A stretch of DNA of 64,000 nucleotides from Staphylococcus phage AH12. The position numbers and the translations under genes are program-made. The stretch's first letter is position 1; every line of letters begins with the position of its first letter. Below, in pieces: positions 19,047 to 52,156 of the stretch. Where the stretch lies: sequence record OR455461.1. One strand, written 5' to 3'. The notes below the pieces were generated by a model, which saw only the letters and a program-made list of their open reading frames with translations, was not told where the DNA came from and did no database searches.

Positions 19047-19080
19047 TCCCAATACCTATTAATACAATAGGTATTGGGAT
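19047..19080. terminator. bidirectional hairpin terminator TCCCAATACCTATT..AATAGGTATTGGGA
   Basis: 14-bp stem plus T-run. Lies between convergent genes. Confidence 0.55.
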
Positions 19081-19085
19081 TATTT

Positions 19086-19742: not shown

Positions 19743-19829
19743 TCAAAATTTCCCTTCAATAAATTTTTTAAATTCACTCCAATTCTAATTTTTTATATCC
19801 TAAATAACCTTTAGATTTTACATATTTTA

Positions 19830-20144: not shown

Positions 20145-20203
20145 TATTTATCCTCTCCTTATTTAAAGTTTAAATTCTAAGTATATTATCTAAAAATATT
20201 GAA

Positions 20204-20926
20204 TCATTCCAATTCTAATCTTTCATATCCTAAATAACCTTTAGCTTCTTGTATATTATTATACTTATTTATTAAACTAACTAAACTATGTCTTAATCTA
20301 TAATATACAGTACCTTTACATTTACTAATATTCTCATCTAAAAACATAATCCATTCGTATAATACTTTTTCATCAATTTCTTTAATTAAATTCCTATGAA
20401 TTAGATATTCTATTACAGATTGTAAATTAGGATTAAATATAATTCTATTTAATTTATTCTGATTAAATTCATCTTTAAAATTGACATATATTACATCTGA
20501 AATATACTTGGAATCGTCTTCTTTAATTTTAGTTCCTATATTAATTAATCGATTAATAAATAAATATTTATCATTAATAATCATGGTATCGGAATCTACC
20601 ATTTTAACTAATCTCTTAATTGATGCTTTTCTTAATAGACCGGTTAAAAATTTATCCTCTTTTCCATTAATTCTTATACCTTCAGATTCAAAATTGTCTA
20701 TGATATAATTTATAAATTCTTCATATTTGTTTAACTCATTTTTAGTAAATAATGTTTTATCTAAGTTATCTTTAATGTAACAACTTAAAATATTACTTTC
20801 CAGTAATAATTGAAAAGTAATAATATTCTTTGAAGATGGATCATTTAAATTAATTGTCATTAATTGATCTATACGTATACTTTCTCTATTCTTTAACTTC
20901 ACTTCTTTATTCTCTTTTACTAACAT
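20204..20926 (-). CDS. hypothetical protein
   Basis: 240-aa ORF. Confidence 0.5.
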   Translation of the reverse strand: MLVKENKEVKLKNRESIRIDQLMTINLNDPSSKNIITFQLLLESNILSCYIKDNLDKTLFTKNELNKYEEFINYIIDNFESEGIRINGKEDKFLTGLLRKASIKRLVKMVDSDTMIINDKYLFINRLINIGTKIKEDDSKYISDVIYVNFKDEFNQNKLNRIIFNPNLQSVIEYLIHRNLIKEIDEKVLYEWIMFLDENISKCKGTVYYRLRHSLVSLINKYNNIQEAKGYLGYERLELE

Positions 20927-20945
20927 GTCTCATAACCTCTTTCTT

Positions 20946-34050: not shown

Positions 34051-34983
34051 ATGGCAATTACAAGAAGAAAAGTAACTAATGAGACTAAGGATTTAAGTGT
34101 ATTGGAATCAGCAGAATTAAAAGTAAGTGAAGAACAAGGTTATAAAGGTGATGTATTAACTTTTGAAATTGAAACAGTTCCAAAAGAATATGATAGAAAG
34201 AATTTAGTATTAATTCCAGAAGATGATAATGTAATTAAAATTAATTACAATAAGAATGAAATTAATATTGCTTCTGATGAATTAAAAGATGTAAGTATCA
34301 AATTAAAGGATATTCCAACAGATACAGAATATGATAATGTAACTATTACAGCTTCAGGAATTAATCCTGATAAAGAAAAAGAAATTAAAGAGGAAAAAGA
34401 AGAAAAAGAAGTTAAAGAAGAAAAAGTAGAAGAAGTTAAGAATCCAGTTAAAAAGAAACCTAGTACAAAAACTAAAACTAAAACAAATAAAAAGGATGAT
34501 AATAAAATGGAAAAAATTAAAGTTAATCGAGTTAAAAAAGACGTTAAGAAAACTGCTAAAAAGGAATACAGTGATAAATCATACACTAAAGATGAATTGT
34601 TAAATGATTTATTAACGAATCTTGTAGATGAATCAGGAGATGCTGCATACAGTAAGAAAGAATTAAAAGATATTATAACATTAGCAGATTCATTACGTAC
34701 ATCAGCTTTAAAAGATGGTAAAACAATTTCAATTAATAACATCAACTTTACACGTAAATTACAAAAAGCTCGTATTCATGCACCTAAATTAGATACAGTT
34801 AAATCACCTTCATATGTAACTCCACATGTAGTTATGCAAGCTAAAGTTGAATCTGATGATAAAAAAGTATTAAAAGGTGAGAAATTATCTGCTGATAAAT
34901 TTAAAACAGTAGATGGTGAAGAAATCGATTTAAATAAAGTTAATGAAGAGTATGAAAAAGAGTTTAAAAATAAATTTCAATAA
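34051..34983 (+). CDS. hypothetical Lys/Glu-rich protein
   Basis: 310-aa ORF. AAGGAGAG RBS. KEKEIKEEKEEKEVKEEKVEEVK low-complexity segment. Confidence 0.5.
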   Translation: MAITRRKVTNETKDLSVLESAELKVSEEQGYKGDVLTFEIETVPKEYDRKNLVLIPEDDNVIKINYNKNEINIASDELKDVSIKLKDIPTDTEYDNVTITASGINPDKEKEIKEEKEEKEVKEEKVEEVKNPVKKKPSTKTKTKTNKKDDNKMEKIKVNRVKKDVKKTAKKEYSDKSYTKDELLNDLLTNLVDESGDAAYSKKELKDIITLADSLRTSALKDGKTISINNINFTRKLQKARIHAPKLDTVKSPSYVTPHVVMQAKVESDDKKVLKGEKLSADKFKTVDGEEIDLNKVNEEYEKEFKNKFQ

Positions 34984-34995: not shown

Positions 34996-35658
34996 ATGAT
35001 ATTAATGAAGCATTTTTACAATAAAAAAAGAAGTATTAATATTAATATAGAAAATTTATATTTAAATCATATTGATGTAATTAAACGTTACGATTTTGGT
35101 GATGAAGAATTACATCAAATGATTGATAGATTTTTACCTCAAGTAATTGAAGAATCTTATGAGTTTAATATTGAAATGTATAATTTATTAAAGACTGATA
35201 ATATTAAAGAACGCTATGAATTAACTTCATTAGCTTCTCTTGAATTATTAGATATAATTCTTTATTTCGTTTCTATAAATTCTACTTTAATTGAGAAGTA
35301 TAATTTAGAATACAAATATGTAATAGAGTTGAATGATTTAAATTTCAGTAAAGACTTTGTATTAAATACAGGTGAAAAAGTTAATGATGATAAATTCTAT
35401 CAAACAATAATTGATTCTGTAAGTAAAACAGTAGTTAATAACGGTGGTCATATAAGAAGATTAACTCCTAATAGAAAATATCATCAAGAGAATAAAGAAG
35501 TTAGTAAAAAAGAAATGAATCATATTATTGGTACTATTTTCTTTATTAATCATAGAACAATAGATTTCTTATTAACTGTATTATTTGAAAAACTATCTTT
35601 AGAAAAAGATGTAGATCCAATATTAGATAAAATTCAAGAAGTAGTTAAAAATAAATAA
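34996..35658 (+). CDS. hypothetical protein
   Basis: 220-aa ORF, followed by hairpin plus T-run terminator at 35664..35727. Confidence 0.5.
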   Translation: MILMKHFYNKKRSININIENLYLNHIDVIKRYDFGDEELHQMIDRFLPQVIEESYEFNIEMYNLLKTDNIKERYELTSLASLELLDIILYFVSINSTLIEKYNLEYKYVIELNDLNFSKDFVLNTGEKVNDDKFYQTIIDSVSKTVVNNGGHIRRLTPNRKYHQENKEVSKKEMNHIIGTIFFINHRTIDFLLTVLFEKLSLEKDVDPILDKIQEVVKNK

Positions 35659-35663: not shown

Positions 35664-35727
35664 TTCCCTAACACTTATATTCCTTAAATGGAGTATTTGT
35701 GTTAGGGAAATTTTTGTTTTTTTTTTG
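35664..35727 (+). terminator. rho-independent terminator
   Basis: Stem TTCCCTAACAC..GTGTTAGGGAA followed by T18. Confidence 0.6.
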
Positions 35728-35805: not shown

Positions 35806-38800
35806 ATGGATAATAATAAAAAGAATATAAAGAGACTAGAGAAAAATAACAATTCAGAGATAATTAAAAATGCTTCTAAAAATACTAGTCGTATTCTTTT
35901 CAATGCATTTATTAAATCAAATCCAGCACTAGATAGTGTTATTGGTTCTGATGGATTAAATTTAATGAATCAAGAAGAAAGAAGAATTAAAAATGTTTCT
36001 GAAATTAAATCTTCTACTAAGAATTTAATAAAAAGTATTAAATCTAGTTCAGAAGAAAATGATATATTTTCAGAAGAAAGTGAAAAACTATCAAATTCTA
36101 AACCTGAGTATGAGACAGTTACTGAAATAATTGATAATGATGATGGTACAAAATCTGAAATAATAAACGTTTCAGATAAAAAGAAATCTAGTCTAGTAAA
36201 TTCACCTTTAATTGCTTTTAATAATCTCGCTACGATTAACCAAAAAGGTTTTACAGGAACTAATATAGCTTTAAGAAATTTAGCGGTATCAAATGAAGCT
36301 ACAAGTACTTTAATGAATTCAGCAGTATTGAATTTAGAATCAATACAGAATTCTATATATCAAAATACTTTACTTGAAGAAAACACTAAAAGAGGAAAAC
36401 AGAGTAAATTATTTGAAATAGTTAATGGTAATATAAGTTTATTAAAATATTTAGACAATAAAACAAATATTGAAAATAATTCAATGATAAGTATGTTAGG
36501 TGGTTCTGAAGGACTTAAGAATATATTAATGGGATTTGCAAAAAATCCTATTGAATTAGCATTAACTACAGGTGCTCAAATGGGCATGAAGAAATTAATG
36601 TATGGAAGTACTTCAGGATATGATCCAGATGATGTTGAAAATAAAGGTATATTTAGTAGACTTAATAGAAAATTTGATCCTAATAATTTAGGTTCTTTAT
36701 TAGTAAGTGAACTGACTGATGATGAAGGAAGAATATCAAATACCCTAGATAAACTTAAAGGTAATGATAATAAATATATTTCTAATTTAGGAGAAGCACT
36801 TAATAAGAGAATCGGAAATTTAAAAGATAATGTTTTAAGTGATGGAACAATATCAACTAAGAATAAAAGAGATAAAAATACTCCAGTTCAATTTGATAGA
36901 GAAAGTCATACTTCTATTAATAAAGCTATACCAGATCTTTTATCTAGATTACAAGGTAATCTAATTGCTAGAAGAGAAGGAAAATCTAATGGTTTAGTTA
37001 ATAATAGCGAATTAGGTAGTATATATAACTATTCTAAAGGAACTTGGGATAGTAGAGGGAATAATAGAAAAAATATAAATGACAAATTAAAAGAAAAATC
37101 ATTATTTAATTTTAAAGATACTAAGTTAGGAAAAGATTTATCTAATAATGGTATTGAAGATGAAGAAGTTAAAGACATCTTATTCTCTTTAAGTAAAATT
37201 AATAAACCAGTAAAAAATAAAGATGAATTATCTAAATATACTAAAGATATAAATTATTCAGATATTGTTGAAAATATTTTCAATAATGATATATCTAAAT
37301 TTAATATTGATCTTTTTAATATTAAGAAATCAATAGGTACTGAGTATAACAAGATTGATAAAGATGGTTCATCATTAATGACATTTACAGATATTAAAGG
37401 TTTAAAAAGAAGAAATAATGAAGTTCAATCAAGTTCTGCTAGAGTAAATAAAATTAATGAAGTTAAAGATTATTCTAATATCGAATGGAAGAATGATGAT
37501 CTTGATGAACTTAAAAAATTATTCTTAGAAATAGAAAGTAAATTAGATGATATTAACCCAGAAAATATAAGCAATAATAAAGATTATGTAAATGATAAAA
37601 TAGGAAGAATTAATAGTATTATAGATTCTTCTAGTAAGTTTAATTTACCTAGCTATTTATCTAATGAAAAAACAAAATCAGTTCAAGACAAATTAGGTAA
37701 ACTATCAAACTCCGTTAATAAATTTAATGATATACGTAAAGATCCTTCATCTATTTTAAAAGGAAACACTTATAATGATAATAATAATGAAGATCTTAAT
37801 TCTGGGATCATAGATAATAACTATACAGATAATCATCCTTTAATGAATTTAATAAATAATATTAAAGGAAAACAGAGTAATAATAAAGTTGATTTAAATA
37901 AAGAACCAACTAAAAGCATTGATGATTTATCTAGAGAAGAAAAGCAATCTAAAGCTAGAAAGTATCTTGAAAATATAATTAGCACTGCTTATCCTAAGCA
38001 AAGTAAAACTATGATAAATGACATGAATCAATCTGATGATAATAAAAAATTAGATGAAATGAAAAAAGGTTTATCAACTGCAAATGCTGCTGAAACTGGT
38101 GAAGATGTTATATCAAAATTATCAGGATCTAGTAAAACAAAAGTTGCTGAAGATTTAAGAGGAACTCTTAAATTTGGTTCTGGTGGAGCTGCTGAAAAAG
38201 AAATGGGTACTAAAAAATTAATGAATTCAATGTTAGATTTTAGTAAACCAGGAACAATTGCCTTTGCAGGACTATCCGCTACTGTTTTAGCTAAATTAAT
38301 GAACGGTAAAAAGAAAAAAGATCAAGAAAAAGGTCTAATGGGTAGCGTTGGAACAGGATTAGGTTTCTTAGGTAAAGCTGGATTAATGTTAGGTGGAGGA
38401 GTTTTAGCTGCTAAATTCTTACCTAAACTCTTAGGTAAATTTTTACCTAAAGGTGCTATGAATATGTTTGATACAATTAAAAATTTACCTGGAAAATTAA
38501 AAGGAACTTTTGGTAAAGTTTTTGATGCCGGTAAAAATTTCTTCGGTAAAGGTAAAAACCTAATTGGAAAAGGATTAGGATTAGGTAAAAATATATTCGG
38601 TAAAGGAATTAAGTTAGGTAAAAATATCTTAGGAAAAGGTGCTCAATTAGGAAAATCTTTAATGGGTAAAGGATCTTTAGGATTAATTAAAGATGGTTTC
38701 GGTAAAGGTGCTTCTATAGCTAAAAGTGGATTTAATAAATTATTTAATCTTGGTGGTAAAAATTCTTTTGCAACTAAAGGTCTTCCTAAATCAGGTGGGA

Positions 38801-41751
38801 TTTTAGGAAAAGGATTAAGTAAAGCTGGTTCCATCGGTAAAGGTCTATTTAGCTCTATGAAAAATGGTGGTAAAAAAGCATTAGGTTTCTTAGGTAAAGC
38901 TAAAAATAAATTATTCAGTAAAGGCGGTATGAAAGCTGCTGGAAAATTTGCTTTAAAAGCTGGTCTAAAAACAGCATTACCTTTTATACCTGTTGTTGGA
39001 CCTATTATAGGTGCTGCAATGTGGGCACCAGATATTGTTAAAACTATAAAACACCCTATTGAATCTCTTAAACATCCAATTAAAACTTTAGGAAGCTTTT
39101 TCGGATTGTCTAAGCATCCAGGAGATACTCTTGAGGCTAAACAAAAAGAAGAAAAAGAAAATGAAGATGAAACAGGTTTAGGAAGATTAATATTATCTAC
39201 TTCTAAAATGATGTTTAGATCATCTCCTTTATTCCCAATTTCCAAAGTTGGAGGAGATATGTTTAAAACAATAACTGATAATAAAATGAAGTCAGGTCCT
39301 AAAGCTGAAGAAGAAATACAAGAAAATATGTTCTATGATACTCCTTTAGGTAGCCTATATCAAATGGCTAAAGGTGGTATAGATTTCTCTACTAAAGGTG
39401 GAGGAGAAATTGGCGACTGGTTTGCTAGATTTTTAGTTAAAATGGAAGGCATGGTTGTGGCTATGTCTAAAATGAAGAATTCTAGTTCAGGAGGAGATTC
39501 ATCTTCGTCTTCATCAGATAGTGGTAGTGGACAATTACAAGGTAATGAAATTGAAATAGATAAAAATGCACCTTCTATTACATCACAATCTGTATTGAGT
39601 AAAATACCTGATAATGCTGCAGGTGCTTGGATTAAGAAACATCAATTCTGGCAACCTTTCGGTAACTATCAAGGACTATCATTTAATGGTAGTTCAAAAC
39701 ACTGGGGTATTGATATTGGTATGCCTACAGGAACAGATATATTGGCTATTGTACCTGGTACAGTAAGTAATATAATTAAAGATGTTGGTGGAGGTAATAT
39801 CGTTGAGGTCAAAAACGGTAGTATCTACACTTGGTATATGCATAATAGTAAAATAATTGCTAAAAAAGGTGATAAAGTAGGAGTAGGTCAAAAAATTGCC
39901 ATATCTGGTAATACAGGTGCTCAAACTACTGCACCACATATGCACTTCCAGGTCATGAAAGGAAGACCTTCAAATGAAACTGCGATTGATCCAGCACCTT
40001 ATGTATTTGCTAAGGTAAAAGGTAAAGGTTCAGATGATGATGACAAGAGCAGTTCTAAAGGTGGAAGTAGTAAAAAAGGTGAAAAAGATAAAGGTGGAGG
40101 ACATTCACTAATAGGTGATATGAATTCTGTATCTATGCAAAGACAACTTAAGAAGAAAAATATTCAAGATATGCAGAATAAGAGAAAAGAAATTGCTCAA
40201 CAAAAGAGAGATCAAGATAAAATTGATACACAAATAAATAGAATTAATAAGCAAGATGATTATAAAGTTAAAGAAAAAGCTAAAAAAGTAAATAAAGTAT
40301 TTAATGCAATTAAAGAAAGTAAAGAGAAAAAACAAACTGGAATATTAAGATCATCAAATCAATTTAATAAAATTTTGATTATAGGTGATGAAATAACTAA
40401 AGATGCTTCAAATGATCTTAGAATTAAAATTAAAGGTGCTAAAATAGAAGCTTCTGTAGGAAAACAATATTCTGGTGGATCTGAATCTGGTAGAAGAATA
40501 TTACAAAATAATATTGATGAGTATAACAGAACCGGTGTAGCAATAGTTATCCAATTAGGTTTAAACGGAGGATTATCTACAGGAGAAATATCAGAAATAC
40601 AGAATATGTATGATAAAGCTAATGTATATTTCGTTAATACTTATTTCAATAGTAATAAAAATGGTACTAGTTTAGATTTAACTGATTTAATGAATGCAGT
40701 CAATGAATCAATTAATGCTAGTGCAGCTAATATAATTGACTGGTTTAGCAAAGCTAATTCTGTTTTAGTTAAAGAAGATGGATATATGCCAACAAATAAA
40801 GGTAGAATGATATTAGTAGATTTAATAAAAATGTATGTAAATCCTTATATTGGTGGTGGCGGTGCTTCTGATGATAAAAAAGCAGAAGAAAAAATTGATA
40901 AAGAAGTAGAAAAAGAAAAATCTAAAGCTGATAAAAAAGATAATAAAGATGAAGATGAAAAAGGATCTGAATCTAAAGTTTCTAAAGATGAAGATGGAGA
41001 ATCTTCTGATAGTGATAGTTCTGATTCTTCTTCAGGTGCCGGAGAGTACAGTTTCAAAAATGGTACTTGGTATGGCTCTATTACTGGTAGAGATGATAGA
41101 CGAATGGATGAAGAAGAGCAAGAAGAGCTTAATGATCGTTTAATGAAACGTTATGCTAAAATCTATGGAATTGACTATGAAGAAGCTAAGAAAATAGATA
41201 AGGAACAACAAGAAGAACTTAAAGCTAAAGCAGGTAAAGAAGCTACAGAATCTGGTTCTTCAAGTGGATCAAGTTCATCTAAAGATGGAGATGATAAAGA
41301 TTCAGGATCTTCTGCAAGTTCTTCTAAAGACAAAGCTAAAGAAAATATCGAAAAAGCAGGAAGTCAAATTTCCAAATTAGGTAATGGTTTCCAATTACCT
41401 ACATTAGAGAATAGTGGTTTTTCTAATACTAATAAAACAACACAAAATAATCAAGGCGATACAAGTAATAGTACAACAAATAATAATTATAATCAAGGTC
41501 AAGAAAGCACTGTTAATAATACTGATGTGAAACAAGAATTTGTAAAAGGTAAAAATAAAACTACAAATCATTATAATAAAATTGTAAATAATTATAAAAA
41601 TTCAACTGTGACTAATGGTAATACAGATTATGTATATGATTATGAGCAATATTGGTATTCAGATGACCTCGTTAAAATGTTGTCAAATATAGATAGAAAT
41701 ACATTAGCTTCTACTAAAGAATTAGATAGACTTTTAGAAGAATTAAAATAA
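35806..41751 (+). CDS. giant virion/tail-associated protein (~1981 aa) with peptidase M23 (LytM-like) domain and a second hydrolase-like domain; tape-measure/lysin-like
   Basis: HWGIDIGMPTGTDILAIVPG...HNSKIIAKKGDKVGVGQKIAISGNTGAQTTAPHMHFQ matches the M23 HxxxD/HxH signature. Gly/Lys-rich repeats (GKGLGLGKNIFGKG..). The ORF track starts at GTG 35788. ATG 35806 is preferred from RBS context. Confidence 0.6.
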   Translation: MDNNKKNIKRLEKNNNSEIIKNASKNTSRILFNAFIKSNPALDSVIGSDGLNLMNQEERRIKNVSEIKSSTKNLIKSIKSSSEENDIFSEESEKLSNSKPEYETVTEIIDNDDGTKSEIINVSDKKKSSLVNSPLIAFNNLATINQKGFTGTNIALRNLAVSNEATSTLMNSAVLNLESIQNSIYQNTLLEENTKRGKQSKLFEIVNGNISLLKYLDNKTNIENNSMISMLGGSEGLKNILMGFAKNPIELALTTGAQMGMKKLMYGSTSGYDPDDVENKGIFSRLNRKFDPNNLGSLLVSELTDDEGRISNTLDKLKGNDNKYISNLGEALNKRIGNLKDNVLSDGTISTKNKRDKNTPVQFDRESHTSINKAIPDLLSRLQGNLIARREGKSNGLVNNSELGSIYNYSKGTWDSRGNNRKNINDKLKEKSLFNFKDTKLGKDLSNNGIEDEEVKDILFSLSKINKPVKNKDELSKYTKDINYSDIVENIFNNDISKFNIDLFNIKKSIGTEYNKIDKDGSSLMTFTDIKGLKRRNNEVQSSSARVNKINEVKDYSNIEWKNDDLDELKKLFLEIESKLDDINPENISNNKDYVNDKIGRINSIIDSSSKFNLPSYLSNEKTKSVQDKLGKLSNSVNKFNDIRKDPSSILKGNTYNDNNNEDLNSGIIDNNYTDNHPLMNLINNIKGKQSNNKVDLNKEPTKSIDDLSREEKQSKARKYLENIISTAYPKQSKTMINDMNQSDDNKKLDEMKKGLSTANAAETGEDVISKLSGSSKTKVAEDLRGTLKFGSGGAAEKEMGTKKLMNSMLDFSKPGTIAFAGLSATVLAKLMNGKKKKDQEKGLMGSVGTGLGFLGKAGLMLGGGVLAAKFLPKLLGKFLPKGAMNMFDTIKNLPGKLKGTFGKVFDAGKNFFGKGKNLIGKGLGLGKNIFGKGIKLGKNILGKGAQLGKSLMGKGSLGLIKDGFGKGASIAKSGFNKLFNLGGKNSFATKGLPKSGGILGKGLSKAGSIGKGLFSSMKNGGKKALGFLGKAKNKLFSKGGMKAAGKFALKAGLKTALPFIPVVGPIIGAAMWAPDIVKTIKHPIESLKHPIKTLGSFFGLSKHPGDTLEAKQKEEKENEDETGLGRLILSTSKMMFRSSPLFPISKVGGDMFKTITDNKMKSGPKAEEEIQENMFYDTPLGSLYQMAKGGIDFSTKGGGEIGDWFARFLVKMEGMVVAMSKMKNSSSGGDSSSSSSDSGSGQLQGNEIEIDKNAPSITSQSVLSKIPDNAAGAWIKKHQFWQPFGNYQGLSFNGSSKHWGIDIGMPTGTDILAIVPGTVSNIIKDVGGGNIVEVKNGSIYTWYMHNSKIIAKKGDKVGVGQKIAISGNTGAQTTAPHMHFQVMKGRPSNETAIDPAPYVFAKVKGKGSDDDDKSSSKGGSSKKGEKDKGGGHSLIGDMNSVSMQRQLKKKNIQDMQNKRKEIAQQKRDQDKIDTQINRINKQDDYKVKEKAKKVNKVFNAIKESKEKKQTGILRSSNQFNKILIIGDEITKDASNDLRIKIKGAKIEASVGKQYSGGSESGRRILQNNIDEYNRTGVAIVIQLGLNGGLSTGEISEIQNMYDKANVYFVNTYFNSNKNGTSLDLTDLMNAVNESINASAANIIDWFSKANSVLVKEDGYMPTNKGRMILVDLIKMYVNPYIGGGGASDDKKAEEKIDKEVEKEKSKADKKDNKDEDEKGSESKVSKDEDGESSDSDSSDSSSGAGEYSFKNGTWYGSITGRDDRRMDEEEQEELNDRLMKRYAKIYGIDYEEAKKIDKEQQEELKAKAGKEATESGSSSGSSSSKDGDDKDSGSSASSSKDKAKENIEKAGSQISKLGNGFQLPTLENSGFSNTNKTTQNNQGDTSNSTTNNNYNQGQESTVNNTDVKQEFVKGKNKTTNHYNKIVNNYKNSTVTNGNTDYVYDYEQYWYSDDLVKMLSNIDRNTLASTKELDRLLEELK
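41035..41290. repeat. about 250-bp segment nearly identical to 46375..46625 (shared between the two giant genes)
   Basis: Encodes GAGEYSFKNGTWYGSITGRDDRRMDEEEQEELNDRLMKRYAKIYGIDYEEAKKIDKEQQEELKAKAGKEATESG. The second copy reads GASEYSFKNGTWYGSITGRDDNRMDEEEQEALNDRLMKRYARIYGIDYEEAKKIDEEQQAELKAKAGKEATESG. Confidence 0.7.
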
Positions 41752-41772
41752 AAAGAGTGGTGAGAATAAAAA

Positions 41773-44700
41773 TTGGCTAAAGATAAATTTAATACTAAGA
41801 AATTAGAAAGAGAGTTCAATAGGAACTCTTCTTCTAATTCTTCTAGAAAATATATTGATAATGAATTCAAAAAGAATTTAAATAGTATGAAATCAAACAA
41901 CATGAAAAAACTTATTGATAACAATAATCCTTTAAAAGCTATCAAAGAAGTTAAAGATAATAGAAAAGAACAATTTAAGAAATTAACTGAAACTGGAAAA
42001 GATTTGTCTAAAGAAGCTCTTAAAAGTACTAAAAGAACTTTAAAAACTGGTGAAACAATCATAGATAAAGAAGCTTTAAGTAAATCATCTAATTTAGATG
42101 GTGGAACAATGGGCATGGGCGATGATTTTGATTTCAGTAGCTTTGATGATCTTGATATGGGTGATGAAAATCTAGATAATGATGAAGTAGGAGATTTTTC
42201 TTTCGATGATTTTGATGAAGAAGAAAGTAATAAATCTGAAGTAATTTCATCAACAACAATAGTTAGTGATAATTCATCTTCAGCTAAATCTTCTGCTCTT
42301 TTAACTTCTTCTATATCTAATTTATCTCAAATTAATGCCACAGGTTTTAATAATTTGATGGAAACTCTTCATTATATGAGAGAAACTAATGATAATGTTA
42401 GAACGGATTTATTTGAAGGATTAACAGGTTTAATCAAAACTAGTAATGATATTAGAAGTAATACAACCGTAAAAAATATAAGTGAAATTAAAAATAGCAA
42501 TTCTTTAGAAGATTTGTTCTTATCTAATATAACTCTTTCTAATATATTAAGTGGTAGTAAAGAAACTGGTTTTAAAGATAAAGCTAAAGACTTTGCTAAA
42601 AAACAAGGTATTGAATTAATTAAAGATGTTATTGGGAGTAGGTCTAAAGGTATACAAGGTGGACTTTTAGATAGTGCTAAAGGCAAAGCTTTTGATATAC
42701 TAAACAGTGACAAACTTAGTGAAAAGCTAACAAATATGTCAACAGTATTTACTAAAGATGAAGATAAAAAAGGTAAGAAGAAAACCAATCGTGATTTCAT
42801 AGATAAACAGAAAAGCAAACTTATAGATAAATTATTTAATAATATAGATGGTGGAATTTCAACAGCAAATAAAAAGAATAAAAATGAAAAAGTAGCTTTT
42901 GATGTTGAAACCCATAGTACTATTAATACAGTTATTCCTGGTTATTTATCTAAAATAGTTGGTTTAACTTCTGAAGATGGTCAAGAAATTCACTATGATT
43001 ATGATTCAGGTTCATTTAAAACTTCTAAATCTATTAATGATGAAATTAAAAAATCTATAGATAGTACTATTGAAAGTTCTGAATTCTTCAAGAGAGTTGA
43101 AAGTAAAGCTAAAGATAAAAATATAGACTCTAAAGATTATAAATCATTAGTAAAGAATATTATTAGTGAAAATGTTAATAGTTCTAAAGATAGTGATAAA
43201 GTTAAAACTAAGTCATCTAATGTAAATAGTCTTTTAGAAGAGCTATTTGAAGATAAAGAAGTAAAAACTAGTTTAACTAAAGCTAGAATGCAATTGAATC
43301 AAAAATCTAAATCAATTAGAAAAAATCTTGGCGGAAGTACTATAAATGCAGTTAATGATAAAGGTCAAAAACCTAAGTCATATGCTTCTAAAGGTAACAA
43401 TGAATTTTCTGACATTAATTTTAATATTATCAATAGCGATATAAGTGAAATTAAAAATATTGTATCTAGAATAAATGATAAACTAGATGTAAGAAAAAAT
43501 AATCAACAATCTTCACAAAATGATAATAATAATATTGTATCTGGAGATAGTCAAAAACAAGATAGTAAATTTGATGAAATTAAAGAAAAATTGGATGATA
43601 TTAAAGATACTAAGTCTTCTAATTCTAATAATTCTTCTAATTCTAATAATGGAAATAATTTAAATAATAGAGATGAACAAAAATCTACTTTGATTCCAGA
43701 TAGTAATGAAGCTCATGCTTCTGAAGTAAGCAGACAACAAGAAGAAAAAGAAGATAATCCATTAAAAGATGAAATTAAAGATAAAATAGAAGAAAAAGCT
43801 AAAGATAAAATTAAAGATATTGATAAAGATAAACTTAAAAGAAAAGTATTAGATAGTAAAATGGCTAATACTAAAATTGGTAAAAGTGTTATAGGTGCTG
43901 GTGAATCACTTGCCGGTAAATTTGCTGCTGGTGGAGCTTTGTTATCTGGTGCTGGAAGAGGATTACGTTCTAAACTAAGAAATAAAGCTAAAGGTAAATT
44001 TGGTGCAAGTAAAGTTGGAAGTAAATTAATGGGATCTAGAGTTGGTAAAGGTATAGCTAAAGCTGGTTTGAAAGTAGGTTCAAGAGTAGGACTAGCTGCA
44101 ACTGGTGTAGGATTACCTTTATCTATACTATTGTCTGCTCCTGAAATAATGAGTACTATAGCACATCCGATTGAATCTCTTAAACATCCAATTAAAACTT
44201 TAGGAAGCTTTATAGGTTTTAATGATCACCCTGCAAAACAGAAAAAAGAACAAGAAAAATTAGATTCAGAACAACCTAATGGTGAAAATGCTAAATTTAG
44301 TGTTGATCCTTTAATTGATTCTAAATTAACTGGTGATAAAGATAGTTCTTCATTAATTGGAAGTTTTATTAAAGACAATCCTTTATTAGCTCAAGTTCCT
44401 TTAATGGGATTAGCTGGAGTTGGACTTTATAAAGGAATTGTAAAACCTGCTTTCGGTCTAGGTATGAATATGGTACAGAAAACTACTGGAATGGCTAAAG
44501 GATTTGGTGATTCTACTGATAGTATGATGGAAGAAAAATCTGGCGGTTTTGGTGGTTTAATTAAAAAAGCTGTAGGTGGAGCTTCAATGTTATTAATGGC
44601 ACCTTTAGCTATGGCTGGAAAAGGAATTAGTAACATGGTAGGAGCTACTTCTAATCTTATTCAAGGTGGAATAGGCTTAGCTAAAAACTTATCAGGATTC

Positions 44701-47523
44701 CTTGATGACAAATTTTCTTCTCATGAAGAAGATATGTCTAATCAAAGTCGTGAAATGGTAGAAGCTAGTAAAGAAGAATTAGGTTCTTATCAAGAAGGTA
44801 TTGAAGATCATGCATCTGAAAGAGCTAAAAAAGAAATGGCTGAAATGCAAGGAATGTCTGATAAAGCTAGTAAAGATGCTAAAAAACAAGTAGAAGATTC
44901 AACTAATAAAACTAAAGATAGTATCGAGAAAGATGTTAATGGAGTGATGAAAAATTCTCCTTTATCTATCATGGGTAAAATTAGTGAAAAAATGCATAAA
45001 ATGATGCCTAATAATTTAATGAGTAAACTTAAAAAAGCTCCTAAAAAATTGGCTGAAACTATGTTAAGATTATCTCCTTTCTATTCTTTATTAAGTAAAA
45101 AGAAAAAGAAAAAATCTAAAAAAGATATAACTGATCCTGATGGTGAAGTAGTAAACAAAATTGGTGATTGGTTTGATAAACTTGGCGGAATGATGAACGA
45201 TATTATGGCAGGATTCATGGCCGGTTCATCAGGAAGTTCTTCTTCAGAAGGATCATCTGATGGAGGAGCAGAAAGTGTTGATGGTAAAGATGTTGCATCT
45301 AAAGTATGGAATTTCTTTGCTGAAAAGGGGTTAGAAGATCATCAAATAGCAGGTATATTAGGTAACTTTGAACGTGAATCCAAAATGGATCCTGGTGCTG
45401 AACAAAACTCTGGATGGGTTGGAGGTAAAGGGCTAGCTCAATGGGATGACCGTAAAGATAATCTTAAAGCATTTGCTGAAAAGAAAGGTAAGAAATGGTC
45501 TGACCTTGATGCTCAGTTAGACTTCATGTGGTATGAACTTCAAGGATCTGAATCTGCTGCTTGGTCTGCTATTAAGAAAGCTAAAAATGTTGATGAAGCA
45601 ACAGTTGTATGGGAGAATTTATATGAACGTGCAGGAGTTAAAGTTATTCCTGAAAGACAATCAAACGCTAAAAAATGGTTAGATAAACTAGGGGGTTCAT
45701 CTAAGAAATCCACTAAAGCTAAAGGTGGAGGTTCTAGTACTGTTTATAGTGATACGAACGTTAATCAATTTGCAAATATGGTATCATCTACATCTAATAA
45801 AAATAAAAAAGTTGGAAAAACTGGTTTAGTTTTAGAAAAACCTACTATTACTGGTGGAGTTTATGGTAAAGGTGGAGGTGGAGGATCCGGTGGATCTGAA
45901 AAAGATAAAATTAAACAAGCTGTACAATGGGCAATAGCTCAAGACGGTGCAACATACTCTCAGTCAAATAGACAAGGTAAAAATTCATTTGACTGTTCTA
46001 GTTTAATTGCTCGTTCATTTAAAAAAGCTGGTTTAGAAATGGATATTAATGCTACCACTTTTACTTTTAGAGATGGTGGTACTAAATTTAGAAAAATAAG
46101 TAAAGGTACTAAGAAAAAAATTGGTGATATTACTTTATGTGATAACGATAACCATGTTACTATGTATATAGGTGGAGGAAAACAAGTTGAATCATATTAT
46201 GGTCATGGTGTTGCTGTAACTCCTGCAAATAAATACCAAAAAATGGGATTACAAATTGGTATTACAATGAGATATGGCGGCGGTGGTCCTGATGATACAG
46301 GCAAACCTCTAGATGGTAGTGATAAAATAGGTGGAAGCGATAATGAAGGAGGAGACTCTAACGGTTCTTCTGCTGGAGCTTCTGAATATAGTTTCAAAAA
46401 TGGTACTTGGTACGGTTCTATTACTGGTAGAGATGATAACCGTATGGATGAAGAAGAACAAGAAGCTTTAAATGATAGATTAATGAAACGTTATGCTAGA
46501 ATTTATGGAATTGACTATGAAGAAGCTAAGAAAATAGATGAAGAACAACAGGCTGAACTTAAAGCTAAAGCAGGTAAGGAAGCTACTGAATCTGGAGCTT
46601 CAAGTGGATCAAGTTCATCATCTGACGGTTCAGAAGGGTCATCTGGCAAAGATGGTTCTGATGGAAAAGATGGTAAAGACGGTTCATCACCTTCATATAG
46701 TTCTGGAGCTGATGGTGACAATCAATCATCTTCAGGAAGTCAAGGAAATGTTAATAATAACCAAAATAATTCTAGTATAATTAATAATGGAGGAAACAAT
46801 AGTTCTACGGTTATTAATAATAATTATAATAATGGTAAGCCTACAACTAATAATAACTCTATTACAAATCAAACTATACAAGGCAACAATAATACAGTAA
46901 GAAATATCTATAATATTACTAATAATTATAATAATTCTAAAGTAAATTATGAAAATAAAGGACCTATGAAAGTAGATCCACAAAAACGTATGGATTTAGA
47001 TAATATAATTAAACATACAAGTAATATTGATAAAAATACTGCCAAAATGTTAGAACAACTTAAAGATATGTCCTTTAAAGGTAAAAATATTAATAAAGAT
47101 GGAAATACAACAAATATTTCTAATACTATTATTAATAATAAAGGTGATTTAGTAGATTCTAAAGGTAATGTAATTATTAAAGATATTCAAAAAGAGCTTG
47201 AAAAAATTATTAAAGAAAATCCTAATATTATTAATAATGGTTCTAATGGTCAAAATGGTTCTAATGGATCTAATGGTTCTAATGGAAATAGTAACAATAA
47301 TAATGGAAATGATAATCAATCAAATCCTAATAATCCTAATGATCCAAACAATTCTAATAATCCAAATAATCCTAATGATCCAAATAATCCTTATACTCCT
47401 GATGGTTCAAGTCAAGATCCATCTACAGGTAATCAGGATTTACAAGAAGCAATTAGAGATTCTTATGGAGATAGATTTGTTATTGACGTTAGACCAGCTA
47501 TACCTGTTTTCTCAGGAAAATAA
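41773..47523 (+). CDS. giant virion/tail-associated protein (1916 aa) with phage-tail-lysozyme-like domain and NlpC/P60 (CHAP-like) peptidase domain
   Basis: GILGNFERESKMDPGAEQNSGWVGGKGLAQWD matches the phage tail lysozyme domain. ..NSFDCSSLIARSF..HVTMYIGGG..YGHG gives the Cys/His papain-like NlpC/P60 signature. TTG start after GAGTGGTGAG. Shares segments with the preceding gene. Confidence 0.6.
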   Translation: MAKDKFNTKKLEREFNRNSSSNSSRKYIDNEFKKNLNSMKSNNMKKLIDNNNPLKAIKEVKDNRKEQFKKLTETGKDLSKEALKSTKRTLKTGETIIDKEALSKSSNLDGGTMGMGDDFDFSSFDDLDMGDENLDNDEVGDFSFDDFDEEESNKSEVISSTTIVSDNSSSAKSSALLTSSISNLSQINATGFNNLMETLHYMRETNDNVRTDLFEGLTGLIKTSNDIRSNTTVKNISEIKNSNSLEDLFLSNITLSNILSGSKETGFKDKAKDFAKKQGIELIKDVIGSRSKGIQGGLLDSAKGKAFDILNSDKLSEKLTNMSTVFTKDEDKKGKKKTNRDFIDKQKSKLIDKLFNNIDGGISTANKKNKNEKVAFDVETHSTINTVIPGYLSKIVGLTSEDGQEIHYDYDSGSFKTSKSINDEIKKSIDSTIESSEFFKRVESKAKDKNIDSKDYKSLVKNIISENVNSSKDSDKVKTKSSNVNSLLEELFEDKEVKTSLTKARMQLNQKSKSIRKNLGGSTINAVNDKGQKPKSYASKGNNEFSDINFNIINSDISEIKNIVSRINDKLDVRKNNQQSSQNDNNNIVSGDSQKQDSKFDEIKEKLDDIKDTKSSNSNNSSNSNNGNNLNNRDEQKSTLIPDSNEAHASEVSRQQEEKEDNPLKDEIKDKIEEKAKDKIKDIDKDKLKRKVLDSKMANTKIGKSVIGAGESLAGKFAAGGALLSGAGRGLRSKLRNKAKGKFGASKVGSKLMGSRVGKGIAKAGLKVGSRVGLAATGVGLPLSILLSAPEIMSTIAHPIESLKHPIKTLGSFIGFNDHPAKQKKEQEKLDSEQPNGENAKFSVDPLIDSKLTGDKDSSSLIGSFIKDNPLLAQVPLMGLAGVGLYKGIVKPAFGLGMNMVQKTTGMAKGFGDSTDSMMEEKSGGFGGLIKKAVGGASMLLMAPLAMAGKGISNMVGATSNLIQGGIGLAKNLSGFLDDKFSSHEEDMSNQSREMVEASKEELGSYQEGIEDHASERAKKEMAEMQGMSDKASKDAKKQVEDSTNKTKDSIEKDVNGVMKNSPLSIMGKISEKMHKMMPNNLMSKLKKAPKKLAETMLRLSPFYSLLSKKKKKKSKKDITDPDGEVVNKIGDWFDKLGGMMNDIMAGFMAGSSGSSSSEGSSDGGAESVDGKDVASKVWNFFAEKGLEDHQIAGILGNFERESKMDPGAEQNSGWVGGKGLAQWDDRKDNLKAFAEKKGKKWSDLDAQLDFMWYELQGSESAAWSAIKKAKNVDEATVVWENLYERAGVKVIPERQSNAKKWLDKLGGSSKKSTKAKGGGSSTVYSDTNVNQFANMVSSTSNKNKKVGKTGLVLEKPTITGGVYGKGGGGGSGGSEKDKIKQAVQWAIAQDGATYSQSNRQGKNSFDCSSLIARSFKKAGLEMDINATTFTFRDGGTKFRKISKGTKKKIGDITLCDNDNHVTMYIGGGKQVESYYGHGVAVTPANKYQKMGLQIGITMRYGGGGPDDTGKPLDGSDKIGGSDNEGGDSNGSSAGASEYSFKNGTWYGSITGRDDNRMDEEEQEALNDRLMKRYARIYGIDYEEAKKIDEEQQAELKAKAGKEATESGASSGSSSSSDGSEGSSGKDGSDGKDGKDGSSPSYSSGADGDNQSSSGSQGNVNNNQNNSSIINNGGNNSSTVINNNYNNGKPTTNNNSITNQTIQGNNNTVRNIYNITNNYNNSKVNYENKGPMKVDPQKRMDLDNIIKHTSNIDKNTAKMLEQLKDMSFKGKNINKDGNTTNISNTIINNKGDLVDSKGNVIIKDIQKELEKIIKENPNIINNGSNGQNGSNGSNGSNGNSNNNNGNDNQSNPNNPNDPNNSNNPNNPNDPNNPYTPDGSSQDPSTGNQDLQEAIRDSYGDRFVIDVRPAIPVFSGK
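46375..46625. repeat. second copy of the shared about 250-bp segment
   Basis: See 41035..41290. A second shared block (..HPIESLKHPIKTLGSF..) lies at 39055..39105 and 44165..44215. Confidence 0.7.
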
Positions 47524-47566
47524 TATTTTGATGCAACATAAATTTATAGTAAATAAATTAAATTGG

Positions 47567-47605
47567 GGATATGACATTTATTATGTGTCATATCCTCTTT
47601 ATTAT
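47567..47605 (+). terminator. rho-independent terminator
   Basis: Stem GGATATGACA..TGTCATATCC then TCTTTATTATTT. Confidence 0.5.
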
Positions 47606-47625: not shown

Positions 47626-49101
47626 TTGGCTGAAGAAAAAGATAAAAAAGAGTCTAAAGAACAAGAACCTTTAAAAGTTGCTGACGATGATATGGCTTTA
47701 ATACCTCAAGCTGATGAGAAAAAAGGTGATTATGACTATCATGAATATGATCCTACTCAAAAAGATACTGGTGCTTTTATGGATGCTTTGGGTAATCAAA
47801 GACAAGCAACTGAATATTTAACAGATAAAAATGCTAAAGATAAAAAACAATTAAGAAATGTTAAAGGTGAACTAGATGTATTTGGAATGCCTATGTACTA
47901 TTCTAGTTTAGATGATCCTAATAGAAGAATATATAAAAGAACATTTGAATTAGATTTACCTTTAGTATTTATAATGCCGGGTATGCCTAAATTAAATGGT
48001 AAATTATTTGGTAAACCAGGAGAAGGTAAATTATGGAGTTTTGGTGAAGGAATGGATAGATTAGTAAACTCTGGGTTATCTTTAGTTGGTATCGGTAATA
48101 CTAAAGATGGTCGTATGATAAGCTTTGAACCTAAAATGGCTGAATATTATAAATATGTACAAACTATGGCTTCTCAAGTTCATGCATCAATGGGATTAAA
48201 AGGATCATTTGATCTAGGTGGATCTCTACAAGATGATAAAAACTATGGACTAGCTTACTATGCAGATAAATCAACTAGTATATCAGAATCTGCAATGCAT
48301 GAATATAATCAATCTGATATTGCTTCTCAAGTTAATAATAAAAACCAAGAAATACGAGAACAAAAAGAAATGGCTCGTATTGGAGGAGCTTCTATTTTAG
48401 GTAAAATTACAAGATCTATTAAAGATAGTGTTAATGATATGGTAGCAAATATGCCAGTTATTGGTGGTATTGTAGGTAACTTTATGGAACATTTAGATGG
48501 TGCAAGTATGTACTATCCCGATGTATGGATGAACTCGACATTCGATAGAACTTATAATCTAGAATTTAAATTCTATAGTGCTTATGGAGATCCTCAATCT
48601 ATCTTTGATAATGTATATTTACCATTCTTGTCACTATTAGTTTTAGCATTACCATTACAAGACTCAATTTTCTCTTATAAGCAACCATTTATTATTAGAG
48701 CTAATTGTCCTGGTAGATTTGAATGTAACACAGGTATAATAACTTCAATGAATATAGTTCGTGGTGAAGAGGGTACATGGACTGCAGATGGTTTCCCAAG
48801 AGAAATTACTGTATCTATTAATATTAGAGATATGTATCCAAACTTAATGGCATCAAAATCATTCCAACGTATGAAATTTAACACAGGATTATTATCTTAT
48901 ATTGATTGCTTAGCCGGAATTAGAAGGGATCAACTATCTATTATTGATAAAGCTCAAATTAATATGAAAACTCAATACTCTAGAAGTATGCAGGTAATTA
49001 AAGGAAGAGTCTTTCAACAACAAATTGATGATGCAATCTATGGATATAAATCCCAATATAATCCTCATCCAAATAGCCCGGGATTGAATATGTTTACTTA
49101 A
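47626..49101 (+). CDS. hypothetical virion-associated protein
   Basis: 491-aa ORF. TTG start after GGAAGTGAAATAAA. Position in the structural block. Confidence 0.5.
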   Translation: MAEEKDKKESKEQEPLKVADDDMALIPQADEKKGDYDYHEYDPTQKDTGAFMDALGNQRQATEYLTDKNAKDKKQLRNVKGELDVFGMPMYYSSLDDPNRRIYKRTFELDLPLVFIMPGMPKLNGKLFGKPGEGKLWSFGEGMDRLVNSGLSLVGIGNTKDGRMISFEPKMAEYYKYVQTMASQVHASMGLKGSFDLGGSLQDDKNYGLAYYADKSTSISESAMHEYNQSDIASQVNNKNQEIREQKEMARIGGASILGKITRSIKDSVNDMVANMPVIGGIVGNFMEHLDGASMYYPDVWMNSTFDRTYNLEFKFYSAYGDPQSIFDNVYLPFLSLLVLALPLQDSIFSYKQPFIIRANCPGRFECNTGIITSMNIVRGEEGTWTADGFPREITVSINIRDMYPNLMASKSFQRMKFNTGLLSYIDCLAGIRRDQLSIIDKAQINMKTQYSRSMQVIKGRVFQQQIDDAIYGYKSQYNPHPNSPGLNMFT

Positions 49102-51349: not shown

Positions 51350-52156
51350 TTATTTAATATCTCCGTTACCTGAACCTGTAATTCCACCTTTGTTATAATC
51401 AAAGTCAGAAAGCTGAGCTCCTGCTTCTTTAGGTGCATTAGGATCAAACATACCTTGTTCAACGAAGCTGTATACTTCTTTAAGTTTAGACTTAGCGAAG
51501 TCATTTACACGAGCAGAGATTTCCATATTACCTGCGAAATCTTGTTCAATTTGAACTTCTTCGTGAGTTTCCATAGTATAGTTATGGTGATCAATGCTAA
51601 TACGAGTAGGCATAACAGCTGTATAGTAAGCAGCAAATTCAATATTATTTTTACTAGTGTTATTAGCATCAGGACGAGTTTGGATGTATAGTAATTCTCC
51701 TGTATGGTTCTTAGCAGCATATTCTAAGTTATGAATCTTAGGATAAGTAGCAATACCAGTACGAGGATCACGGATACCAGATACCCAATATTGATACATA
51801 TTTTTAATTGGACTACCAGAGAATTCTTGGTGAGTCATTTGGAAACCAGTGTTCCCTTTAGTGATAGACGCAGCAGTACGATAGTTATTACCGTTAAATG
51901 TATGCATATAATCATTTGTAGTTAATTCAATATTTTCTAAACCTTGGAATGATTTAAAGTTCTTTTGAGTCATAGCTTTAAATCCAGGGAATTGTTTTTC
52001 AACCCATGAAGGAACTTTAGTCCATACGATAAAGCTGTAACCAGTTACGAACGGATCAAACTCAAGAGTTTGTAAGTTCATATGGCCATTGTAGAACCAT
52101 TTATTTTTAGCGATGTTATTATCAAATACACGCTGATTCTTACTTGGTAAAATCAT
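51350..52156 (-). CDS. putative tail tube protein
   Basis: 268-aa ORF directly downstream of the putative sheath gene. Assignment by gene order and size only. Confidence 0.35.
   Translation of the reverse strand: MILPSKNQRVFDNNIAKNKWFYNGHMNLQTLEFDPFVTGYSFIVWTKVPSWVEKQFPGFKAMTQKNFKSFQGLENIELTTNDYMHTFNGNNYRTAASITKGNTGFQMTHQEFSGSPIKNMYQYWVSGIRDPRTGIATYPKIHNLEYAAKNHTGELLYIQTRPDANNTSKNNIEFAAYYTAVMPTRISIDHHNYTMETHEEVQIEQDFAGNMEISARVNDFAKSKLKEVYSFVEQGMFDPNAPKEAGAQLSDFDYNKGGITGSGNGDIK

Follow-up and report, generated by a model that had tools for sequence, protein, structure and literature searches.

Staphylococcus phage AH12 (sequence record OR455461.1) carries two giant genes, lying end to end at positions 35806-47523, within the stretch of 64,000 nucleotides (nt) that was analysed here (the window). 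Their products, of about 1900-2000 amino acids (aa) each, repeat one another in part, and the locus thus raises the question of how the two genes are related and what keeps some of their segments nearly identical: exchange between the copies, as a preliminary description of this DNA had proposed, or selection. Here, we present the comparison of both genes with each other and with those of other phages, together with an analysis of their enzymatic domains. In our opinion these are probably tandem-duplicated tail genes of the tape-measure family, which have kept a common skeleton and carry different lytic cassettes, and whose invariant blocks are conserved by selection.

Two giant paralogs and their single-copy relatives

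The listing of open reading frames (ORFs) shows two long intact ones within 35806-47523, both on the + strand:

35806-41751, + strand: gene 1, 1981 aa, tape-measure-family paralog with M23 and predicted OatA-like SGNH domains
41773-47523, + strand: gene 2, 1916 aa, TTG start, tape-measure-family paralog with lysozyme and NlpC/P60 domains

A BLASTP comparison of gene 1 with gene 2 gave three collinear matches, and three collinear blocks were found in every genome tested. The two genes are thus intact collinear paralogs; that they are paralogous had already been recognised in the preliminary description. The N-terminal match, which had escaped that description, amounts to 36% over 96 aa and contains the motif FDxE[ST]HxxINxxIP. 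The middle match (41% over 133 aa) spans the Gly/Lys-rich region, a hydrophobic segment and HPIESLKHPIKTLGSF. The C-terminal match (50% over 258 aa) includes a 71-aa block, EYSFKNGTWYG...ATESG, in which 66 of 71 residues are identical, and a Ser-rich flank. The blocks and neighbouring elements are located as follows:

36805-37092, + strand: N-terminal conserved block of gene 1 (..VQFDRESHTSINKAIPDLLSRL..), common to gene 2 and to outgroup tape-measure genes
42817-43050, + strand: N-terminal conserved block of gene 2 (..VAFDVETHSTINTVIPGYLSKI..)
38206-38955, + strand: Gly/Lys-rich region of gene 1 (G 17-26%, K 17-19%), with a 33-nt tandem repeat at 38550-38655
38965-39099, + strand: hydrophobic segment of gene 1 (LKTALPFIPVVGPIIGAAMWAPDIV), then the invariant HPIESLKHPIKTLGSF
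44086-44211, + strand: hydrophobic segment of gene 2, then the invariant HPIESLKHPIKTLGSF
41044-41256, + strand: gene 1 copy of the conserved 71-aa block, EYSFKNGTWYGSITGRDD...ATESG, within the DNA repeat 41025-41279
46384-46596, + strand: gene 2 copy of the conserved 71-aa block, within the DNA repeat 46365-46619
41653-41748, + strand: C-terminal motif of gene 1 (WYSDDLVKMLSNIDRNTLASTKELDRLLEELK), conserved among orthologs and echoed inside gene 2 at 46990-47070
47235-47400, + strand: tail of gene 2, Asn-rich and of low complexity, whose 9-nt tandem repeats encode NGS and NPN runs

At the DNA level, the C-terminal block lies in a direct repeat of 255 nt with 87% identity (41025-41279 vs 46365-46619). 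It had been reported before as an 83-aa block of about 90% DNA identity at 41035-41290 and 46375-46625; the repeat itself stands, and its figures are replaced by those given here. A second repeat of 88 nt with 81% identity (39020-39107 vs 44132-44219) encodes the identical HPIESLKHPIKTLGSF and agrees with the other shared block of that description. Gly/Lys-rich repeats and Asn-rich tails, which it had ascribed to both proteins, were located as the 33-nt period in gene 1 and the 9-nt repeats in gene 2. Each giant protein has one clearly hydrophobic segment, immediately ahead of the HPIES motif, and in both of them the HPIES and EYSF blocks enclose the enzymatic cassettes. The skeleton kept by both copies therefore consists of the FDxE[ST]HxxINxxIP block, the Gly/Lys-rich region, the hydrophobic segment with HPIESLKHPIKTLGS, the EYSFKNGTWYGSITGRDD...IYGIDYEEAKKID block and the C-terminal motif. 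Beyond the recurring C-terminal motif, gene 2 has an extra conserved tail of about 150 aa, of which the terminal ...IDVRPAIPVFSGK is conserved. The length of its product is 1916 aa in AH12, 1904 in PB50 and 1914 in Machias, and we suspect that the 9-nt repeats account for these differences, which would be of the replication-slippage type.

Megablast with 30000-52000 as the query retrieved Staphylococcus jumbo phages only: vB_StaM_PB50 at 95.5% over 96% of the query, Machias at 96.4%, and LY01, S6, DC4, PALS2, Madawaska, MarsHill and SA1 at about 80%. AH12 belongs to this group of Staphylococcus jumbo myophages (S6/PALS2/MarsHill/Machias), which is related to AR9 and PBS1. Both giant genes are present in 10 of the 10 genomes examined, i.e., nine database genomes and AH12. 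The N-terminal block of gene 1 also recurs in BpSp, LPJP1, phiR1-37 and Fusobacterium jumbo phages, in each case within a lone tape-measure gene (with tblastn, E 3e-3 for BpSp and 1e-6 for LPJP1; with pairwise blastp, 1e-8 to 1e-10 for these two). BpSp has one giant gene, gp263 (1797 aa), followed directly by gp264, a homolog of the AH12 gene 47626-49101 (36% identity, E 1e-73). In LPJP1 one region of about 4.6 kb, split in the annotation, lies between homologs of 34996-35658 and 47626-49101. BpSp gp263 matches exactly one place each in AR9, PBS1, Goe21, Internexus and phiR1-37; the match is annotated as 'tail tape measure protein' in AR9 (40% over 87% of the query) and as 'putative tape measure tail fibre protein' in phiR1-37 (g083).

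Since the pair is found in all ten Staphylococcus genomes and one syntenic gene in the outgroups, this comparison of gene order shows a lineage-specific tandem duplication, in which a presumably ancestral single lytic tape-measure gene with the same flanks would have been doubled within the staphylococcal phage lineage. A glycosidase-like domain is found in the single-copy relatives, accompanied by NlpC/P60 in LPJP1. This suggests that the cassette of gene 2 is the ancestral one and that gene 1 acquired its M23+SGNH cassette.

Lytic domains of the two proteins

Three different peptidoglycan-hydrolase domains had been named in the preliminary description, which suggested profile searches as a check and left a further hydrolase-like region (ILIIGDEITKD..GLNGG) unassigned. 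All three scored above the Pfam thresholds and have their catalytic motifs in alignments with proteins from the PDB, and the fourth region turned out to be a real domain as well:

39697-39993, + strand: Peptidase M23 of LytM/lysostaphin type in gene 1 (Pfam; HWGID and HMH)
40339-40851, + strand: predicted OatA-C-type SGNH domain in gene 1, aa 1512-1682 (PDB match, AlphaFold 2 model, Foldseek; Ser and His replaced)
45292-45690, + strand: Phage_lysozyme2 in gene 2 (Pfam; related to the N-terminal lysozyme-like domain of phi29 gp13)
45910-46230, + strand: NlpC/P60 (Amidase_5-like) cysteine peptidase in gene 2 (Pfam; Cys in FDCSS, His in NHV)

Peptidase_M23 of gene 1 reached 78.5 bits vs a cut-off of 28.7 bits (E 4e-22). 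The zinc-ligand motifs HxxxD and HxH are present in the PDB alignment as HWGID and HMH and are retained across all orthologs, and the best PDB matches are 5KQB, LytM and lysostaphin. In gene 2, Phage_lysozyme2 (PF18013) reached 138.6 bits vs a cut-off of 28.2 bits (E 2e-40), and the Glu of GNFERES is aligned to that of GNMQSES in phi29 gp13, which we take to be the catalytic residue. The scores were lower for NLPC_P60 (30.9 bits vs 23) and Amidase_5 (29.1 vs 21); here, the Cys of FDCSS and the His of NHV are aligned to those of CwlO and of RipC-type DL-endopeptidases in the PDB. The nearest relatives of the M23 and lysozyme domains occur in tape measure proteins of other Staphylococcus phages (sipho-type and Twort-like). 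If they are indeed peptidoglycan hydrolases of the virion, the two proteins of this S. aureus phage group may serve as leads for enzybiotics; between them they have four modules, in three of which the catalytic motifs were checked.

The hydrolase-like region of gene 1 matched PDB entries 6WN9 and 6VJP, both S. aureus OatA-C, with E 2.5e-9, and a profile of four orthologs matched 6WN9 with E 5e-15. A single-sequence AlphaFold prediction gave an unusable model (predicted local distance difference test, pLDDT, of 35). An AlphaFold 2 model built with a 17-sequence alignment (16 relatives used) reached a pLDDT of 88.1, and in a Foldseek search of the PDB with this model S. aureus OatA-C took ranks 1-4 (target template-modelling scores 0.78-0.82), generic SGNH esterases coming next. 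Judging by the model, the region 40339-40851 is of the OatA-C-type SGNH fold. Pfam gave no match for it, and relaxing the threshold to E 10 in Pfam searches of sub-regions brought up nothing credible, whether in this region, in the N-terminal halves or in the C-terminal blocks. A word-sharing homologue search with the region gave 118 candidates, of which 0 were significant, and the protein itself was not recovered either. By scanning 1.84 billion representatives with HMMER, we found 46 relatives, including a 1973-aa protein which is 100% identical across the SGNH region. Some of the relatives are OatA-like, with an Acyl_transf_3 domain, and others are multi-lytic proteins adding M23, NlpC/P60, Phage_lysozyme2, SLT, transglycosylase or beta-lactamase-like domains. 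The same SGNH type also begins some unannotated proteins of 1500-1660 aa, in which several hydrophobic stretches, probably transmembrane, and a long repetitive region rich in Glu, Gln, Ala and Lys were recognised by eye.

The consensus of the SGNH family reads IGDSI...LGTNG...DGVHP, and the Block I Ser and the Block V His are present in 16 of 16 relatives. In AH12, Block I is IIGDEIT, with Glu in place of the Ser, and Block V is EDGYMPT vs DGVHPT of the family, with the His replaced by Met and the Asp retained. Block III (LGLNGG) aligns with LGTNG, its Gly and Asn (oxyanion hole) being invariant in the alignment. PB50, Machias and SA1 have the same Ser/His pattern as AH12 (GDE), LY01 has GDD and is devoid of the His, and S6, PALS2 and MarsHill have GDS and GVH intact (gene 1 aa ~1555-1730). 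According to a review (PMC9487903), the Block I Ser is required for catalysis in all members of the SGNH family. Since it is this Ser that has been replaced, the AH12 domain is most likely a non-catalytic relic. It has been retained among the phages (45-58% identity to distant orthologs, with an invariant QLGxNGGL[ST]TG), possibly as a binding module. Active and inactivated OatA-type SGNH forms apparently coexist in one phage group, the AH12 type and the S6-clade type being 39% identical, and such forms in close phages make a natural experiment on coping with O-acetylated, lysozyme-resistant peptidoglycan. A recent capture of the host oatA gene was considered and rejected: identity to OatA-C is only ~24-30%, and the nearest relative (40%) is a different one, an unannotated protein of 1518 aa that has a coiled coil as well as transmembrane segments. 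A term search of papers on these phages found no mention of the OatA-like SGNH domain, its inactivation or the paralogy blocks, and a full-text search for SGNH together with 'tape measure' found no mention of an SGNH domain in these phages.

Conservation and exchange of segments

The near-identical segments had been read in the preliminary description as a sign of ongoing recombination between the copies. Gene conversion would then still keep the segments alike and would also shuffle the domains. We compared 14 sequences, i.e., both paralogs of seven genomes, taking codons 1-54 of the 71-aa block as its core. The EYSFKNGTWYG... block and HPIESLKHPIKTLGS are nearly invariant in all 14, and the 71-aa block is likewise so in both MarsHill copies. 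When gene 1 is set against its distant orthologs, the most conserved 40-aa window belongs to this block (0.91, vs 0.63-0.74 for M23 and 0.44-0.58 for SGNH). Between the two paralogs of one genome, DNA identity of the core is 89% in AH12, 88% in S6, 87% in SA1 and 83% in LY01, while any two sequences of different clades, orthologous or not, are 82-91% identical. As the identity within a genome is no higher than that across clades, it represents a floor and not a sign of recent exchange. Concerted evolution, in which paralogs within a genome are closer than orthologs between genomes, was not observed in the core block of the compared genomes.

The distribution of the differences does not fit gene conversion either. 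Twenty-four nucleotide differences between the paralog blocks are fixed in AH12, PB50 and Machias, and 19 polymorphic sites are interleaved with them, with no conversion tract visible. Paralog-specific residues (R/N19, E/A28, K39) are shared with the distant clade LY01, and in the HPIES block orthologs cluster together and paralogs do not. Synonymous sites are slightly more favourable to conversion: where residues are identical in both AH12 copies, 9 of 47 degenerate codons differ, vs 14.7 of 47 expected from independent draws on the codon usage of both genes (rough one-sided p ~0.05). The corresponding numbers of differing codons are 12-18 in the other genomes and 10-19 in cross-clade pairs. 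Amino-acid conservation and the extreme A+T codon bias roughly predict the high DNA identity.

Other observations speak for conversion, and the first of them also weighs against selection as the full account. Codons 55-72 encode ELKAKAGKEATESG in both AH12-clade copies and EKxKSEAGKKKSESG in both S6 and LY01 copies, so that they are clade-specific yet shared by both paralogs, and in SA1 the residues T19, D24 and E28 are found in both copies, which looks concerted. Either gene conversion that took place now and then in the past or co-evolution with a partner of both proteins could underlie the pattern at codons 55-72; synonymous sites do not separate the two, since identity there is such as codon bias predicts. 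The position of the cassettes between two conserved blocks, and their exchange in LY01 (described below), would also suit a shuffling of domains. Taken together, the comparisons indicate that the near-identical segments are conserved motifs under purifying selection; gene conversion in the recent past is largely refuted, and we find it unlikely that ongoing conversion keeps the segments alike. This is a caution for sequence-only scans: at 22-30% G+C, a DNA identity of 85-90% between protein-identical segments says almost nothing on recent recombination.

Phage LY01 provides an instance of cassette exchange. Its gene 1 (locus 1353-7298) is 93-97% identical to that of S6 over most of aa 1-1200, with 74-88% in three 100-aa windows. 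In aa 1201-1800, which comprise the M23+SGNH cassette, it is closer to AH12 (54-86%) than to S6 (33-69%). Resemblance to S6 returns in the last ~180 aa, and LY01 gene 2 resembles that of S6 over its whole length; the breakpoints of the mosaic lie near conserved blocks. On the evidence of this mosaic, the M23+SGNH cassette is one that has moved, between conserved blocks, from one phage lineage to another. Such exchange would explain that the inactive SGNH type is found in the AH12 clade, SA1 and LY01, and an intact, very different type in the S6 clade. The domain swapping of the preliminary description is thus upheld in part, as to the cassettes between shared blocks and the mosaic. The exchange, however, occurred between orthologs of different phages and not between the two copies, which again argues against conversion.

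Probable role in the tail and comparison with known systems

Lytic tape measure proteins such as T5 Pb2 are known to be extruded. By analogy, we propose that both AH12 proteins would be built into the tail at low copy number and extruded upon sheath contraction. The cassettes would then cut the Gly-Gly (pentaglycine) cross-bridges (M23), the glycan strands (lysozyme) and the stem peptide (NlpC/P60), and the hydrophobic and Gly/Lys-rich parts may act at the membrane and help crossing. With the invariant blocks, both proteins would make contact with assembly partners that they have in common, and we propose this contact as the reason why they are nearly identical in both paralogs and in all the phages.

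The neighbourhood of the pair is one of tail genes, with the sheath at 52338-55487, the tube (PF23806) at 51350-52156, the baseplate wedge at 28351-30579 and genes for virion proteins, and its flanking genes (34996, 47626) also flank the single gene in LPJP1 and BpSp. The jumbo-phage tape-measure or ejected lytic type, which the preliminary description had seen in these proteins, is likewise the reading of GenBank annotators and of Korn et al., and the AR9 and phiR1-37 homologs are annotated as tape measure genes. The records of PB50, Machias, MarsHill and Madawaska label gene 1 'tape measure protein' and gene 2 'tail lysin'. In the SA1 record both genes are called 'tail tape measure protein', that of PALS2 has 'tail length tape-measure protein' for the first and 'hypothetical protein' for the second, and in S6 and LY01 both are hypothetical. 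Korn et al. speak of "two potential tape measure proteins", one of which has PF18013 and PF00877 and is hence called tail lysin; high alpha-helical content and several predicted transmembrane domains are taken there as indicative of tape measure proteins. The DC4 paper lists a tail lysozyme and, with an M23 domain, a tape measure protein. The gene pair, its tape-measure/tail-lysin reading and the Pfam domains are thus already known, and our main finding adds little to the GenBank records and the papers on near-identical phages. New, though of modest weight, are the probable SGNH pseudo-enzyme of OatA type and its apparently active S6-clade counterpart, the motifs that stay invariant in both paralogs, and the duplication of a tape-measure gene in this one lineage.

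Several points weigh against the proposed role. Homology to the annotated tape measure genes of related phages is local, ~100-160 aa at 28-40% identity, and is accompanied by shared architecture and synteny. In the giant proteins, PHROGs and Pfam matched the enzymatic domains only, and the binding role of the invariant blocks is one that we infer. Neither giant protein is listed among the 52 proteins found in SA1 virions by liquid chromatography with tandem mass spectrometry (LC-MS/MS; Suppl. Table S2), in a shallow survey which missed the tail fibres too, or among the 15 proteins found in DC4 virions by LC-MS/MS, also a shallow survey. Because the surveys are shallow and the proteins are Lys-rich and would be of low copy number, we regard this non-detection as uninformative rather than negative; BpSp virion proteomics, in which such a protein is not listed, was treated as uninformative as well. 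Virion residence of both proteins is thus unproven, and it is not refuted. As for length, a tape measure accounts for ~0.15 nm of tail per helical residue. The PALS2 tail measures 201 +/- 29 nm. This corresponds to ~1340 helical residues vs the ~1900-2000 aa of the proteins, including ~300-500 globular or low-complexity ones, and fits either paralog without discriminating between them.

The annotation of Machias and PB50 invites the view that the copies were sub-functionalised: gene 1 alone would be the length-determining tape measure, and gene 2 a tail-tip or hub lysin without a ruler role. Its conserved C-terminal extension of ~150 aa past the ancestral motif, ending in ...IDVRPAIPVFSGK, and the match of its NlpC/P60 domain to a 'hub-hydrolase' of a contractile system (8V3W) are consistent with such a division. 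Gene 2, however, equals gene 1 in length, and none of the family's structural blocks has been lost from it. The outgroup single genes carry a gene-2-like cassette, so gene 2 is at least as near to the ancestral tape measure as gene 1, and the SA1 annotators name both genes tape measure. We therefore see this division as a tentative alternative, which may yet prove right. Far less can be said for proteins packaged in the head and ejected from it, as the inner-body/E proteins of phiKZ-like phages. The group is related to phiKZ-like phages with virion RNA polymerases, the proteins are giant, and their residence in the tail is inferred. The genes, nevertheless, lie among tail genes, their AR9 and phiR1-37 homologs are annotated as tape measure, and the nearest counterparts of the enzymatic domains are found within tape measure proteins from other Staphylococcus phages; the hydrophobic segment, and the helical content and predicted transmembrane domains given by Korn et al., point in the same direction. 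Head packaging is thus highly improbable.

If both paralogs are tail proteins of the tape-measure family, as we prefer to think, can one tail hold two different tape measure proteins with invariant motifs? They might form a heteromeric tape measure/ejection complex, held together by the invariant blocks, with cassettes exchangeable between lineages and an SGNH domain handling 6-O-acetyl groups, which make staphylococcal peptidoglycan resistant to lysozyme. In such a complex, the S6-clade SGNH domain, with Ser and His intact, would be a de-O-acetylase priming the wall for the gene 2 lysozyme, and that of the AH12 clade, with Glu and Met, a non-catalytic binder of O-acetyl-peptidoglycan. We regard this scheme as a rather doubtful one.

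Further features concern the expression of the pair and its surroundings. The reading frame of gene 1 is open from GTG 35788, and its likely start is the ATG at 35806, 12 nt past a putative GGTGGTGA ribosome-binding site. Gene 2 starts with the TTG at 41773, 9 nt past GTGGTGA; TTG is the start of both giant genes in most relatives. A read-through fusion of the two was rejected: they are in the same frame, but past the TAA of gene 1 come two more stop codons in frame, TGA and TAA. Two terminator-like structures enclose the pair:

35666-35727, + strand: terminator-like hairpin, CCCTAACAC...GTGTTAGGG, then a T-run (read by eye)
47565-47597, + strand: terminator-like hairpin of 13 pairs with a T-run, 3' of gene 2

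The former closes an upstream two-gene unit and the giant pair begins past it, and terminators are annotated at equivalent places in the Machias and MarsHill records. Owing to these hairpins and annotations, genes 1 and 2 appear to constitute one bicistronic unit. A sigma-70 promoter scan gave 81 sites vs 97 in shuffled sequence; it is uninformative for AH12, as the sites are fewer than in shuffled sequence and the phage encodes its own RNA polymerases. The window is A+T-rich, with 20-34% G+C. The G+C content is 0.33-0.34 at 38001-40000 and 44001-46000 (Gly-rich and enzymatic parts) vs 0.20-0.26 across most of the window, and GC and AT skew flip sign with the coding strand at ~34 kb and ~52 kb.

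Directly upstream of the giant pair there are two conserved genes, 34051-34983 and 34996-35658, which end at the terminator and for which PHROG and Pfam have no family. In LPJP1, the homolog of 34996-35658 is directly upstream of the single tape-measure gene; the products of both genes are candidate tape-measure chaperones. Downstream, the homolog of the virion-protein gene 47626-49101 is split in Machias (17825-20942) by a TnpB/CasX-like 'transposase' and is uninterrupted in AH12 and PB50, and PHROGs gave nothing for 49136-51298. Elsewhere in the window, 194-4115 (-) and 9315-10297 (-) are tandem arrays of paralogous small ORFs, of which several of 240-270 aa share 30-36% identity and two of ~160 aa (9315-9800 and 9818-10297) are 53% identical. 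The 646-aa ORF at 24603-26546 (-) matches the HNH endonuclease PHROG phrog_1314 in its C-terminal part, and an AAA-type ATPase-like ORF (26616-28163) adjoins it.

Among known systems, the closest are Machias, PB50, MarsHill, Madawaska, S6, PALS2, DC4, SA1 and LY01, where these two genes recur in unchanged order between the same neighbours. The AH12 pair is 90-97% identical at the protein level to that of Machias/PB50 and 51-63% to those of the other Staphylococcus jumbo phages; nothing essential differs, and AH12 is a further isolate of the Machias/PB50 clade. AR9, PBS1, BpSp (gp263), LPJP1 and phiR1-37 (g083) share with AH12 the N-terminal FD..[ST]..I..IP..LS motif, the Gly-rich basic and hydrophobic segments, a muralytic domain near the C-terminus, the C-terminal motif and the synteny with the gp264 homolog. 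They differ from it by having one gene instead of two, without the M23, SGNH, EYSFKNGTWYG and HPIESLK blocks.

The SGNH domain at the C-terminus of S. aureus OatA (6VJP, 6WN9) is the best match of gene 1 by both sequence and fold, and Block I Gly-Asp and Block III Gly-x-Asn are common to both. OatA, however, has the AT3 membrane domain that gene 1 lacks, and its catalytic Ser and His correspond to Glu and Met in AH12. Gp44 (Tal) of phi11 is a Staphylococcus phage tail protein which also has an SGNH/GDSL domain, at its C-terminus. It is, however, a Tal protein of the baseplate, and a CE2 esterase (2WAO) is what this SGNH domain resembles. The 6-O-acetyl groups of N-acetylmuramic acid are part of the phi11 receptor (PMC4876445). 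The tail-tip peptidoglycan hydrolase gp13 of phi29 (PDB 3CSQ) pairs a lysozyme with an M23 peptidase, as the AH12 gene pair does, and its N-terminal domain aligns with the gene 2 lysozyme (E 2e-7), including the catalytic Glu. In gp13 a chain of 365 aa holds both domains, whereas in AH12 they are on separate paralogs of ~1900 aa.

Other muralytic tape measure proteins are Pb2 of phage T5 (with an M23-type motif), that of mycobacteriophage TM4 and gp181 of phiKZ. With T5 Pb2 and its like the proposed AH12 proteins would share the design of a long tail-lumen protein that is at once a ruler, membrane-active and peptidoglycan-cutting; no sequence relationship is detectable outside the enzymatic domains. 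Phages of the T5 Pb2 type have one such protein, whereas in AH12 two paralogs split four modules between them.

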